Shown: positions 4,593 to 11,232, counted from the first letter of the stretch. The stretch: 64,000 nt of DNA from an uncultured Halobacteriales archaeon (GCA_964627625.1 CAZVJB010000011.1:12175-76174), one strand, 5' to 3'. Made by a program: numbers and translations. The notes: generated from the sequence alone by a model not told the origin.

Positions 4593-7500
4593 TTGACTTT
4601 TTATCCAGTCCAGGAATACGAAGCCGGTCGACACGGGGAAGGCCCCGCTGCGTCCGCGGCGTTTGAGATGCTGGACCAAAACGGAGGGTTTGGCGAGGAA
4701 CTGGTGAAGTTCGTCGCCGCGCTGCATGGTGGCCTGTCCACGGCGGTGGATGCAATCGCGAGCAACCTGCTGTTTGTCCGGTCCGAGTTCGGCCCTCTGC
4801 CGTACCCGATCCATCTGCTTCACATCGACGTAGGCGGTGGAGTCATCGAAAACCTCCTCGACATCGACGATGACGGCCAACCTGACCTAGGCGTGACGGT
4901 GACTCCCGAATTTTCTGTGGCGGACCCCGGAGGTGGTTCTGGCCTTGGCCTTCGTGGCGTTCACATCGCAATCCGGACGATGCCCGAAGGTCGAATCCTT
5001 TCCGGCCTTCGCTTGGACCTAGGCGTGCGCTTGGGCCAAACGCACGCACTTGATGGGCCCTTCACCGACGCGCGGCAGATTGGAGAATACGTCGTCGTCC
5101 GCCTAGAAGCACCATCCGGTCCGTTTCCCGAACGTCTGAAGGCCACCCTCCGGATTCACCAAGACGGGGAGGAGGGCACCGCGGGGTACACGTCGCGGAT
5201 CATCGGCTACGTCGAGAGTCGCATGCCTGGCATCGCCCCACCTGGTGCCACCCTGGCAATCGGCCACTGGACCTGGAAGGGACCCACACGTCCAGTCGAG
5301 CCGCGAGTACCACCGCGATTCGGGCTCCCGGACTCGATACGTCGGGTCATTCGGGTCCCAAACGAGAGTTCTGAGCCAGATGCGCACGACGAACTCGTGG
5401 CCGAAATCGTGCGACCCGAAGCCGCGCCGAACCTGTTCGGTCTGCCTGCCGAACTCCACCCAGGGGGCGCGCCGCTCGATCCCGGCATACGTTTCGATTA
5501 CTCCGAAACGGTTCTCCAAGCCACGCCGACCAAGACGACGCGTTTCTCCATTCGTGTCGATAGCATTGGAATTGGATTGCGCCTCACGACAATCGAGCAT
5601 CCAAAAAACAAGGCTTTCGGCATGCGCTCAAACCGATTGCCCACTCGCGTCGAGATTGACTATGATCCGATGCGTTCGTGGGAACTACCGCAGTTCATCT
5701 ACACGGCCAATGACACCCTGGGCGATTTTGACATGCGCGCCGAGGACCCAGACGGGGCAAGTGCTCTGCGGCACATGGCCATCCGGGCTGCCGAGGTTCC
5801 GGTTCGCATTGGCTTGCGTTTGGGCGGCAACGCCGGTGCAGACGCGCCCCTGCGCGTCTTCGGCAGCGACTCCGATAATGTCTACAAGCCCATGCCGTCC
5901 GCGCTTGGACGGTTCGTCGTAGTCGGGGGCCGAGACATCGGGACGCTCCCCCCTGCAGAACGGCGAGTCACCAAGCGAGATTTCATTCCGGGTCTAGACG
6001 TAAACGTCCCCTGGCCTGCCCATGCCATCACCTTTGACCTGGACGACACGCCCCCTAGTTCGGTGTTGCCGGCGCGGATGGTGGCCGGAGCGCAGGACCT
6101 GGTGTACCTGCGTGTAGAGGAACGGCCAACGCATGCGCAGGACGCGCAGCACGTCGACCGATGGGATGCCGAGCTCGTCCATGCCGACGAAGGCGCCGGC
6201 CTGGTCGTTGACCTGCGCCGTGCACCGACGCTTCGGCCAGGCGTTGGAACTGGAACCGAGCGCCCCCTCCGACTCCAGGTGTACAAGGTCCCCGCCCCGA
6301 CGGTAGCCGAGAAAGAGCACGCGTCGCGGCTCATTGTTCGGGCCGGTTCGATTCCTGACCGGCTAGTCATCGACTACAAGCACGTAGCAGCGCAGTCCCC
6401 AGCCGATAGCGATTACGTTGGGCTGCGCGTATCGGGCGGAGAGTGCAAACACGTCCAGGCGCTTTTCGTCGACAAACCCGCGGAAAAGACGGACCTGCTC
6501 GGAGCCGGCCGCATTTCCGTTGCCATGCCCAACACGCCCCATGGGTTTGTCGACGTGGCGCGTGACCATGATGGGGCCCTACAAGTCACCTCGTCCGAAA
6601 CGGTCCAGGCTTTTGCAGGCCTCGCGCTCTCAAGGGGGTTGGACGCTGAGGGCGACTTCCAGGGTTTACTCAAGCGCATGGTCATGCACGCGTCGTTGCC
6701 TCCTACCCCTGACGACGGTGCCGCACCGAGCCTAAGGATTTCCGCCTCCGCTGGCACGCTGGCGGTCTCAAGCGCTGGCGTGGGGACTTCAGGACGGATT
6801 GCCCTTGGTGAGACCCTGCTTCTCTCGGTCCGTGCCACCCCCCAAGCGGTCGCCAAACAGGTCTTGGCATGCGTTCCTCGCCCCGCGCACCTAGAAGGGG
6901 GGGAGGGGGGGTTCATTAGCCGGCTGCTGCGGCTGTTGGGACGGCTCCGAGTGCCCAGTCTTGGCGAATGCCGCCAGGGCTTCGAACTGCAACCCAAGCT
7001 AGGGGCCTTGAGCGCACGCGTTATTGGGTTGAGGGAGCTCGAACTGACTTCCAATCCCGAGAACATTCCGGGCCACCTTCCTGCCGGGGGGAGCGAAGAA
7101 GGCATGCGCATCCGGGCAACTTTCTCCGAGGGACGGGTAAACCGAGCCTTCCGGTTCCTACTGGGGGACGTCTGGAAGCCCCGGGATCGCCCGTTGGAGG
7201 AGTACCGGGCGGTCAAGTTCAGGGCAGCGGGCGTTCCGGAGACCGTCGCCTTCTCGTTCCTGAAGGGATCGCCCCTGAACTCCAGCCAGCTCCGAAAACC
7301 ATCGATTGTGCACTTGGATTTGTCCGAGCGTTCCGGCGAGGCCGAACTGGTCCTGGAGCAGCCCGAAATCGCGTACGAATTCCTGCGGAGAGGAGTGCAG
7401 GTGGGGCGCGGCGTGACGATGCTGAGCATCGATTCCCTTCCACGGCGAATGGTCATCACCCAACTCTTCGATGAGCGGTATGCGCCGGGCCTTACATGGC

Positions 7501-9549: not shown

Positions 9550-11232
9550 ATGCAAGCCCGTGCCGTCAAGTCCACCCCCTCCCGAGCCACGTGCTCGAAT
9601 CTTCGCGAAATCGCCCAGGCATACATGCCGAGTCTGCTCTTTGCCGCCCACGAACAGTTCTACCCCATCCTCGCCGAATCGTGGCTAACACATGCTACAA
9701 GCGCCGACTGGCCCGAGACAACGCCCGCCCGCGGCAGTGATCTCCTGGTTGATACTGGCCGGCACGGCACGGCTCTAGTCACGCAAGATGGCGACCCGCC
9801 GCGGCTGACGCTGCACGCCGGAACACCCCGGCACAACGCACCCATGGCTCTTACGCCGGATGTGATGTCCAACGGAGTCGGCCTCTTGCCACAAGCCACA
9901 CCGAACCACTTTCTTGTCTTCGGCGGCTGGAGCGACCCCGACACCCGAACGCGCGGTCACCCCCAATACTTGGCCCAGGCATTCTCGGAGATGGGAAGCG
10001 CCCTTTCGAATCAGGTTGTGCCATGGAATCCCGTAGAACTCGATGGTGCCGTTGGCCACCTTCCGCAGTTTTGGACGCCCCAGCCCGTCACGCCAACCGT
10101 GTACGCCGAATTCGAGTGGGCGGGCCGATATCCGGCATGGTGTCAGGAGTTTGGCGAACGCGAGTTCACGGGCGCTGGGTCGGCGCTTGATGACCTCGTT
10201 TGCCTCACGTACTACTTCCTGTACCCACACCGGCAACCGCCCCGTGCAGGCCAAGCCCCCGTCCCCTTAGAGGGCCAATGGGAGGCAGTATCCATCTTCT
10301 TCCGATGCACGGCGGCCTCCGAACGGCGTAACGACGGCCGACCTACCTTTGTCGACATCCTCGAACCACCCTTGTACGTCGTGGCAAGCCAAAACCTGGA
10401 AGGCGGCGTCCACCAAGGCGAGGTCAAGCCCTGGGACAAAACGGAGAAGATTCCGCTCCCCGACATCCTCAACGGCACCGCATTCGTCCTCTACGTGTCC
10501 CAGGGCAATCACGCGATGTATTTTCACCCAGTCGAGGGTGAGTCCCGACCGCTGGAACCAAGCAACCCCGTAGCCGACATCAACCTTGACTTCGACGAGG
10601 ACCGCTTCTGGTGGCAGCTCCTGTTCGTGGTCCTCGTGCTGCTCCTGGCGGCACACGTGACGGCAGACGCTTGGCTGGCCATCCAAGCATTCACGACGGC
10701 GTGGTTGGCTCCTCTGGCAGCGGTGTTACTAACCATATTGGCCATCCTGGCAATTTTGTTACTTGTCTTAGCAGTCGCAGCGCTCTTTGCCGATCACGGA
10801 AGTGAGTTGCAGCCGCGCGTCCGAAATGACCTGGCCATGGGCGATGGCCCCGCACTGGGAAGTCCCCACGAAGCGCCAGCCGGGCTGCCAAGCGACAGTT
10901 CTGCTCCGTCCGAACGGCCTTTGGGAACTCCCAACGCCGGCTCGCCGAGCGGGCACGACAATGTGGCCTTCGACGTTCGCCTTGTCGATCGTCTAAACGA
11001 GCACCACGAGTACAGCCAATTCCCGCCATTGATGCCATGCGAAAACCCCGCCTGGTGGCACTACCCGGGACACTGGGGAATCCGCGTTACCCCCCGCGTC
11101 GACGACGGATGGGCAGACGGCATGCGGAGGGTGGATCACCACCAGCGGTCGTGGGGCTACTACAATGCAGCGCACCTCGTCGAGTTCATCGACCGGGCGA
11201 GCGTCGCGGCACGAGAGGAAGAGTTAATCTGA
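9550..11232 (+). CDS. Vps62/DUF946-like domain protein with two central transmembrane helices
   Basis: N-terminal motifs LTYYFLYP, EGQWEAVSIFFRC and AFVLYVSQGNHAMYFHP resemble Vps62-family motifs (GDWEHFTFRI, AVYSSKHGHASFPHP). Two strong TM helices follow (FWWQLLFVVLVLLLAAHV; LAPLAAVLLTILAILAILLLVLAVAALF). An alternative upstream start is at 9487. Confidence 0.5.
   Translation: MQARAVKSTPSRATCSNLREIAQAYMPSLLFAAHEQFYPILAESWLTHATSADWPETTPARGSDLLVDTGRHGTALVTQDGDPPRLTLHAGTPRHNAPMALTPDVMSNGVGLLPQATPNHFLVFGGWSDPDTRTRGHPQYLAQAFSEMGSALSNQVVPWNPVELDGAVGHLPQFWTPQPVTPTVYAEFEWAGRYPAWCQEFGEREFTGAGSALDDLVCLTYYFLYPHRQPPRAGQAPVPLEGQWEAVSIFFRCTAASERRNDGRPTFVDILEPPLYVVASQNLEGGVHQGEVKPWDKTEKIPLPDILNGTAFVLYVSQGNHAMYFHPVEGESRPLEPSNPVADINLDFDEDRFWWQLLFVVLVLLLAAHVTADAWLAIQAFTTAWLAPLAAVLLTILAILAILLLVLAVAALFADHGSELQPRVRNDLAMGDGPALGSPHEAPAGLPSDSSAPSERPLGTPNAGSPSGHDNVAFDVRLVDRLNEHHEYSQFPPLMPCENPAWWHYPGHWGIRVTPRVDDGWADGMRRVDHHQRSWGYYNAAHLVEFIDRASVAAREEELI

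Follow-up and report, generated by a model that had tools for sequence, protein, structure and literature searches.

Background

Operons of the Tc (ABC) toxins encode accessory subunits, such as the chitinases that decorate YenTc, to which the gene pair described below may be comparable; the Tc toxin complex is the nearest known system. Tc toxins have no leader peptides and are released by lysis (PMC10847048, PMC10847046). In the present study, we analysed three consecutive genes, designated A, B, and C, at positions 4593-11232 of a window (the whole stretch of DNA, 64,000 nucleotides, counted from its first letter) from an uncultured Halobacteriales archaeon (GCA_964627625.1 CAZVJB010000011.1:12175-76174). 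An earlier note on this DNA had described them as an orphan gene, a LamG-like gene, and a Vps62-like gene immediately upstream of an Rhs toxin, and had considered two options, an accessory module of that toxin or an independent system.

The domains found here are variants of known superfamilies, LamG in B and Vps62 in C. LamG domains bind glycans. The HVGDWEH motif of Vps62 resembles the GHRHDWE motif of the NLP cytolysins, in which the Asp belongs to the cation pocket (PMC13159263). The Pfam model of Vps62 includes a beta-tripod part (PMC7613979, PMC8624791), the motif of which is D-x-G-S/T-G-x3-D (PMC8624791).

Abortive-infection systems with membrane effectors (CBASS, Pycsar, and retrons) are a further point of comparison. 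Like them, the module combines, in the few genes of one operon, a putative sensor that lacks a leader and a protein bearing a transmembrane (TM) hairpin; it is patchily distributed and mobile, and some of its copies are found in defence islands. Unlike them, it has no PADLOC match and no signalling enzyme, and the flanks of its hairpin are acidic.

Literature searches that paired LamG or Vps62 with defence systems or with Tc toxins turned up no account of the module. A and C lie outside every curated family, and the module is absent from defence and phage libraries. We found that the invariant core of the module is the B-C pair, and that A accompanies one clade only. Some loci have the pair by itself, others have it together with the orphan giant A, and in compact Tc-toxin operons it directly precedes a TcA-like gene.

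Results

Gene structure

The three same-strand genes of the earlier note were recovered as consecutive open reading frames (ORFs) on the + strand, with maximal extents of 4593-8147, 8045-9544, and 9487-11232. The real starts (A, 4593; B, 8156; C, 9550) were set by homologue alignments and database gene calls; the maximal ORF starts of B (8045) and C (9487) are too far upstream. The genes are as follows.

4593..8147, + strand: gene A, TTG start, 1184 amino acids (aa), identical to the database call P0009
8156..9544, + strand: gene B, TTG start, 462 aa, database call P0010
9550..11232, + strand: gene C, ATG start, 560 aa, database call P0001

For A, an alternative start at the ATG at 4668 (Met26) is possible and would agree better with the N-termini of the homologues. 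The N-terminus of B from the TTG at 8156, MLKLILHHTYNNGR, agrees with all homologue N-termini. The intergenic gaps are 8 nucleotides (nt) between A and B and 5 nt between B and C; therefore, the three genes form one operon. In related loci, the stop and start codons of neighbouring module genes overlap. The long ORFs that overlap A or B in other frames (6413-7915, - strand; 8122-9018, - strand; 5245-5922, + strand) are shadow ORFs of GC-rich sequence, and across the other loci conservation was seen only in the frames of A, B, and C. None of the three proteins has a signal peptide. A and B have no hydrophobic segment, and C has one hydrophobic block.

Distribution of the genes

The set of related loci was assembled from word searches with C and B, a scan of species-representative genomes, and a metagenome scan. 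The word-based search with C gave only 8 proteins among 5.8 billion, and all contigs of these matches encoded, in this order, a protein of 1071-1272 aa without a Pfam match, a LamG protein of 392-430 aa, and the C homologue. The species-representative genomes contained 23 loci, mostly in Actinomycetota and Acidobacteriota, the further carriers being proteobacteria, one Verrucomicrobiae genome, and a metagenome-assembled genome (MAG) labelled Thaumarchaeota. The metagenome scan added 30 loci, and two plasmids of Bacillus pseudomycoides carried a bare B-C pair. A, B, and C are real genes; their proteins are conserved in these other loci, about 55 distinct ones in total. The module is rare and has moved horizontally between bacteria and archaea. 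No copy was found in phage genomes or in 2.9 million viral contigs.

B and C were adjacent in every locus in which the contig was long enough and the genes were intact. A was present in about 25 loci when the HMMER filters were switched off; in the Acidobacteriota-type loci and the Bacillus plasmid, no A lay within 10 kb. The gene order was either A-B-C or, in the loci L014 (Streptomyces), L015, and L026 (Actinomadura kijaniata), B-C-A. A neighbor-joining tree of C joined the two Tc-linked loci (L021 and L069, described below) in one deep clade and gathered every A-linked locus, the window among them, in a second; the loci without A fell into further clades. The type of giant partner thus follows the phylogeny of C.

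No conserved fourth gene was found across the related loci. An all-against-all comparison of ORFs (L001-L038 and the window) revealed nothing shared besides A, B, and C, and the Pfam families of 108 flanking proteins were heterogeneous and largely metabolic.

In two of the B-C-A loci (L015, 8130-17464; L014, 10001-17955), A is succeeded by one more gene in the same orientation, PLDc_2 in L015 and Peptidase_S8 in L014. L015 has two more PLD genes just upstream, with DarT/Macro, a type I restriction subunit, and an integrase nearby. The variation suggests that these fourth genes are swappable enzymatic add-ons.

B-C in Tc-toxin operons

In L021, from the MAG labelled Thaumarchaeota (GC content 0.40), B, C, a TcA-like gene, and a TcB-like gene follow one another in the same orientation, with gaps of 21 and 9 nt. 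The TcA-like protein (1726 aa) has the TcB-binding domain of TcA (PF18276, E=2e-27), and the TcB-like protein (>1583 aa) has SpvB (E=1.5e-86), FG-GAP, and TcdB middle domains. In L069, a metagenome contig with a GC content of 0.66, a TcB-TcC fusion comes first and is followed by B, C, and a TcA-like gene; the successive gaps are 19, 9, and 0 nt. The fusion protein (2504 aa) matches TcdB2-TccC3 (PDB 6h6e) with E=2.5e-191, and also YenB and YenC2; the TcA-like protein (1641 aa) is 34% identical over its full length to that of L021. The two loci thus differ strongly in GC content (0.40 and 0.66), and their Tc proteins are 34-43% identical. In both, B-C is co-oriented and tightly packed with the TcA-like and TcB/TcC genes, and all components are leaderless. 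If the binning of L021 is right, this would be a Tc toxin in an archaeon.

The Tc operons span 8895-21551 of L021 and 1240-16504 of L069. The compact TcA-like proteins (1641-1726 aa) have an extra C-terminal part of 350-440 aa beyond the TcB-binding domain.

In the B-C-A loci, A sits where TcA sits after B-C. Unlike these Tc operons, the window has neither TcA nor TcB, its A is not detectably TcA-like, and most B-C loci lack Tc genes. The toxin link considered in the earlier note changes its form: that to Rhs did not hold, but B-C is linked to toxins within the Tc operons of L021 and L069.

Relation to the Rhs protein

The module does not lie immediately upstream of the Rhs gene. C ends at 11232, the Rhs ORF starts at 13471 or later, and three genes and 2.2 kb lie between them. 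A BLAST search with the window Rhs and a scan for YD repeats in all related loci gave, apart from the Rhs of the window, nothing but the TcC part of L069; this is also the only related locus in which an RHS-repeat protein lies within 10 kb. Stand-alone Rhs toxins are missing from all related loci; therefore, the adjacency to Rhs in the window is not a conserved feature, and the module has no conserved link to Rhs. The earlier note had named occurrence of the genes outside any toxin context as a refutation, and on this point the proposal of an Rhs accessory fails: the genes occur in the about 55 loci without a stand-alone Rhs toxin, and no gene besides A, B, and C recurs.

Protein C

None of 12 members of the C family matched the Vps62 model PF06101, even at E<=10, and C of the window did not match it either. 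A profile of the C family found 187 relatives among 1.84e9 representative proteins. The distant tail of these matches (E 1e-10 to 1e-5), which covers only profile positions about 213-345, consists of a family that we call HEGDWE from its shared motif YxFFYAFNDWR..G.N.HEGDWE. Six of 29 HEGDWE proteins match PF06101, one of them above the Pfam cut-off, at model positions about 332-436 of 541. The member P0163 scores 26.9 bits against the cut-off of 22.1 over residues 174-269, which overlap its match to the C profile (179-265). In a profile-profile comparison with hhalign, C and the HEGDWE family aligned with 99.5% probability (E=4e-22). With a permissive setting, hhalign extended the collinear match on either side of the core, to the N-terminal YxPxLxFxxxExFFP and the C-terminal WWxYxGxWG. 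C is thus collinear with Vps62/DUF946 over YxPxLxFxxxExFFP, the core FY..N....HEGDWE...S.H...HP.VY.A.GSHA.Y, and WxxYxGxWG, and by its sequence profiles it is a full-length, if remote, member of the Vps62 superfamily. The Vps62-like nature of C in the earlier note is upheld as remote homology through the HEGDWE family, but not as a direct match to PF06101. Both motifs quoted there were located (nt 10273-10305 and 10489-10530). The features of C are as follows.

9622..9666, + strand: N-terminal superfamily motif YMPSLLFAAHEQFYP, counterpart of YEPVLRFxxxERFFP in the HEGDWE family
10273..10305, + strand: core motif (E)GQWEAVSIFFR, counterpart of HEGDWE, of HVGDWEH in Vps62, and of GHRHDWE in NLP
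10489..10530, + strand: motif LYVSQGNHAMYFHP, counterpart of HPVVYVAxGSHAxY, with G319, H321, and F325 invariant
10606..10791, + strand: hydrophobic block, residues about 353-414
11044..11079, + strand: C-terminal motif NPAWWHYPGHWG, counterpart of WxxYxGxWG

The C-terminal motif matches the WxxYxGxWG end of the domain; therefore, the Vps62-like domain resumes after the hydrophobic block, which together with an acidic linker of low complexity forms an insert in this domain. E241, G242, Q243, W244, E245, and A246 (EGQWEA) are invariant in the C family. Compared with HxGDWEH, the Trp and Glu are retained, the Asp is replaced by Gln in every C, and both His are gone. Unlike Vps62, C has EGQWEA, an inserted hairpin with an acidic linker, and no beta-tripod signature, and is always paired with a LamG gene; the beta-tripod motif was absent from A, B, and C of ten loci.

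The likeness of C to the NLPs (PF05630, NPP1) lies in the equivalent motif and its local context, and both suggest binding to a membrane or to head groups. NLPs are small, secreted, single-domain proteins with signal peptides, whereas C is leaderless, 560 aa long, and split by the hairpin. No C-family member matched NPP1. The sub-threshold matches were confined to HEGDWE proteins, several of which align weakly with the GHRHDWE region (positions about 55-133 of 197).

The HEGDWE family itself (P0119-P0164) is uncharacterised and bridges Pfam Vps62 and, weakly, NPP1, the family of the NLP cytolysins. Three members (P0143, P0148, and P0153) have hydrophobic segments inserted elsewhere in the domain than in C, and others are fused to Ig-like or PKD arrays.

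The C family profile gave only noise or generic helical bundles against PDB sequences, and Pfam, NCBIfam, PADLOC, and PHROGs gave nothing for C. An AlphaFold2 model of C from an alignment of 8 sequences was poor (mean predicted local distance difference test (pLDDT) 49.8) and had no significant match to the PDB in Foldseek.

The TM region reported for C was confirmed as one block at residues about 353-414. Among 43 family members, the median length of the block is 54 residues (mostly 30-75), and the mean net charges of its flanks are -2.5 and -2.6 over 15 residues on each side. The flanks are almost without Lys and Arg, there is no positively charged loop, and most blocks contain 0-2 charged residues. 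In these 43 sequences, the acidic flanks fail the positive-inside test for a Sec-inserted membrane protein; the charges are opposite to those expected for a Sec-inserted hairpin with cytoplasmic ends. Some hairpins that insert post-translationally are triggered by protonation of acidic residues, and by analogy we infer that the hairpin of C may resemble hairpins that insert after translation.

Proteins B and A

B consists of a LamG/ConA-like jelly-roll (residues about 1-210), a CC motif (C214/C215), a family-specific helical domain ending in the invariant C348, and a basic disordered tail. C215 is also invariant, and C214 is nearly so. B of the window is below the Pfam cut-offs (Laminin_G_2, E=1.6e-3, 19.3 bits against 22.9; Laminin_G_3, 13.6 bits against 27.6). 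Its homologues (30-40% identity) carry PF13385 and are named LamG-like jellyroll proteins by NCBI. Judged from these homologues, the assignment of the B family to the LamG jelly-rolls appears sound even though the window copy alone is below the cut-off, and the LamG signature of the earlier note stands. The N-terminal approximately 210 residues of B match the LamG/ConA-like jelly-roll (PF13385 Laminin_G_3, PF02210); unlike plain LamG proteins, B is leaderless and is fused to the helical domain with the invariant Cys and the basic tail. The B family profile gave only generic helical bundles against the PDB, and B had no similarity to the C-terminal domain of TcA.

A was correctly described as an orphan without a detectable domain. 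It had no match in Pfam (also with nine homologues), NCBIfam, PADLOC, or PHROGs, and the profile of its family gave only noise against PDB sequences. A word-based homology search with A retrieved A alone, and its homologues were recovered through the gene neighbourhood; the divergent A proteins of L022 and L031 were hidden by the default filters of HMMER and became visible only with --max. The homologues are 25-30% identical and always lie beside B-C, the closest aligning over the full length and the rest over the C-terminal half or less. The family has clade-specific insertions and a conserved C-terminal end, GNTGG...RxRIF. The earlier note had raised TcA-like or pore-forming folds for A. Neither a TcA_TcB_BD domain nor a pore-forming channel was found in it by Pfam or by hhalign against the two TcA-like proteins. 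An AlphaFold2 model from the single sequence was unusable (pLDDT 33). The single weak signal of an internal repeat (residues about 531-617 against 832-913; hhalign 53%) was not relied on.

Clade-specific inserts that are absent from the window A occur in the A proteins of L001, L004, and L008 (alignment columns about 330-500 and 950-1100). One resembles an fn3-like module and has an RIYRT motif, and the other is a duplicated unit of approximately 70 aa (…LVGRSxRYLTGxNAG…GDxYxI).

Surroundings of the operon

The genes between C and the end of the Rhs gene are as follows.

11462-12073, + strand: TM protein of 203 aa, between C and Rhs
About 12076-12426, + strand: pYEATS protein (PF20305, E=4e-20), a small prokaryotic YEATS protein with a probable start at about 12076
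12764-13564, + strand: ORF of 266 aa without a Pfam match, overlapping the maximal Rhs ORF
13471-22293, + strand: Rhs protein of 2940 aa, with DUF6531 and 12 RHS repeats

The two-gene unit of the TM protein and pYEATS (11462-12426) has no homologue in any related locus. At its C-terminus, the 266-aa ORF has a hydrophobic segment followed by basic residues, like the membrane anchor of a surface protein. The N-terminus of the Rhs protein is hydrophobic and signal-like, and the protein also contains a poly-Pro stretch, DNDxDG repeats rich in Cys and Asp, and fn3 domains; its C-terminal domain follows the DPSGL end of the core, and it has no SpvB or TcB parts.

Taken as a whole, the window has an archaeal appearance. 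Its archaeal-type genes include a PAN-type proteasomal ATPase of 407 aa, an ORC/Cdc6-like gene, and HVO-type helix-turn-helix (HTH) domains, and an Rhs toxin in a genome with such genes is notable in itself. The housekeeping proteins of the window are not acidic, and for this reason an origin from a halophile (haloarchaeon) was rejected. A gene at 29433-31406 (+) encodes a PKD domain fused to two winged-helix/HVO-type HTH domains, and it is flanked by genes for large surface proteins with PKD/cadherin-like and thrombospondin-type-3 repeats (25399-29280, -; 31354-33372, +). At 35563-38452, a UvrD-family helicase gene (+) adjoins a gene for a DUF6602 protein (-), and the ORC/Cdc6-like gene is at 43318-45390. 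The GC content at third codon positions is 0.65-0.72 in the genes of the first approximately 45 kb and 0.74-0.80 in the genes for PAN, the M24 peptidase, and acetyl-CoA carboxylase. The first part may be a variable island.

Discussion

The reading that we favour, with somewhat less than even confidence, is that A-B-C is a toxin-type, membrane-acting system used in conflict with other organisms. Its giant protein without a leader, which is A in the window and TcA in the Tc-linked loci, would be a scaffold or translocator. B would be a recognition or adaptor subunit, its LamG domain supplying the recognition of a ligand or cargo, and C would be the membrane-active component, whose cytolysin-like pocket domain engages the membrane and whose hydrophobic hairpin inserts post-translationally. 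The acidic flanks of the hairpin could allow a trigger that depends on charge or pH. The membrane attacked would be that of the target, in the case of delivery, or that of the producer, in the case of release. Since leaderless Tc toxins are released by lysis, the missing signal peptides of A, B, and C permit an extracellular role. Of the two options in the earlier note, an independent system is the better one, presumably with a toxin-type role.

Several observations weigh against a toxin. The Tc-linked loci are only 2 of about 55, and the Tc link may have arisen once, because both loci form one deep clade; most other neighbourhoods are metabolic or housekeeping. The A family aligned to the two TcA-like proteins (L021 and L069) with a probability of <0.1% in hhalign, and A has no similarity to any pore-former. 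The Asp of the cation pocket is replaced by Gln throughout the C family. The models of C and A are both poor (pLDDT 49.8 and 33), with an empty Foldseek result against the PDB for C. The C-side flank of the hairpin is basic in L021. The Kyte-Doolittle values of the block reach 3.8, and a soluble toxin part of this kind would need shielding; a resident membrane anchor is a simpler account of the block.

A rival explanation is an abortive-infection or defence system, in which A and/or B would sense infection in the cytoplasm and C, anchored in the membrane of the producer, would permeabilise it from inside. The absence of leaders from all three proteins fits this, as does the patchy, cross-domain distribution with a plasmid copy. 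The neighbours in L015 are PLD nucleases, DarT/Macro, a type I restriction subunit, and an integrase, those in L013 are transposases, a resolvase, and an OLD-family ATPase, and L014 adjoins a STAND NTPase; the accessory genes vary (Peptidase_S8 after the B-C-A of L014, PLDc_2 after that of L015), and the region of the window holds the pYEATS, UvrD, and DUF6602 genes. However, neither the three proteins nor the three ORFs after them matched PADLOC-DB 2.0 at E<=1, the neighbours in 22 genome loci are mostly metabolic, placement in a Tc operon would be unexpected for a defence system, and acidic flanks would be odd for a resident anchor. The absence of the module from the 2.9 million viral contigs is neutral. 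On balance, we regard a defence role as unlikely.

The placement of B-C between Tc genes can also be explained if the pair lyses or permeabilises the producer and so sets free giant cargo that lacks leaders (Tc complexes, or A), as the lysis cassette of type 10 secretion does for Tc toxins. The canonical set of holin, endolysin, and spanin is ill-suited to the archaeal envelope, and C combines a membrane hairpin with a cytolysin-related domain. Tc toxins require release by lysis (PMC10847048, PMC10847046). On the other hand, many loci have B-C by itself, without a giant gene closer than 10 kb, known holins are much smaller than C, and no wall-degrading enzyme is linked to the module. This explanation, which seems to us quite unlikely, overlaps with a toxin-type system and differs only in the membrane attacked.

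A housekeeping or stress role in the envelope, with a membrane-anchored complex that binds lipids or glycans on the cell's own membrane, would suit the many loci among metabolic, efflux, and regulatory genes. It would also suit the domains, as Vps62 is a protein of a sorting pathway and LamG binds glycans. The family is, however, very rare for such a role (8 proteins among 5.8e9 by word search, 187 among 1.84e9 representatives), synteny is lost beyond the module, and cross-domain transfer, a plasmid copy, and embedding in Tc operons are ill-fitting for a core function; we judge this role similarly improbable. That the genes are a dedicated accessory (for delivery, as a chaperone, or in host interaction) of the neighbouring 2940-aa Rhs protein is very improbable and largely refuted by the comparative data: A-B-C shares the strand of the Rhs ORF and precedes it by 2.2 kb, and both archaeal-labelled loci (the window and L021) adjoin toxins of the RHS-cocoon type, but three unrelated genes intervene, the TcC part of L069 is the sole other Rhs/YD-repeat protein in the related loci and none stands alone, the window Rhs has its own signal-like N-terminus and fn3 domains without TcB/SpvB parts, and C of the window belongs to the A-linked clade and not to the Tc clade.

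Conclusions

A bolder form of the toxin reading, to which we assign a low probability, sees in B-C and its giant partner a new class of toxin machinery, found in archaea and soil bacteria, that has several components, inserts into membranes, and follows a logic akin to that of Tc toxins. A would then be a scaffold or translocator analogous to TcA with a new fold, and C would be a membrane-inserting subunit that descends from the Vps62/NLP cytolysin lineage and is triggered by pH or charge. Should the module instead serve defence or release, its membrane hairpin would be unusual and the system still undescribed. If the toxin reading is true, B-C would be new partners of Tc-type injection machines, A would be an alternative giant partner, and the biology of toxin delivery would extend to archaea. 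Its kinship with the NLP motif would connect Vps62/DUF946 with membrane attack and give the first mechanistic foothold for this large and functionally obscure superfamily.

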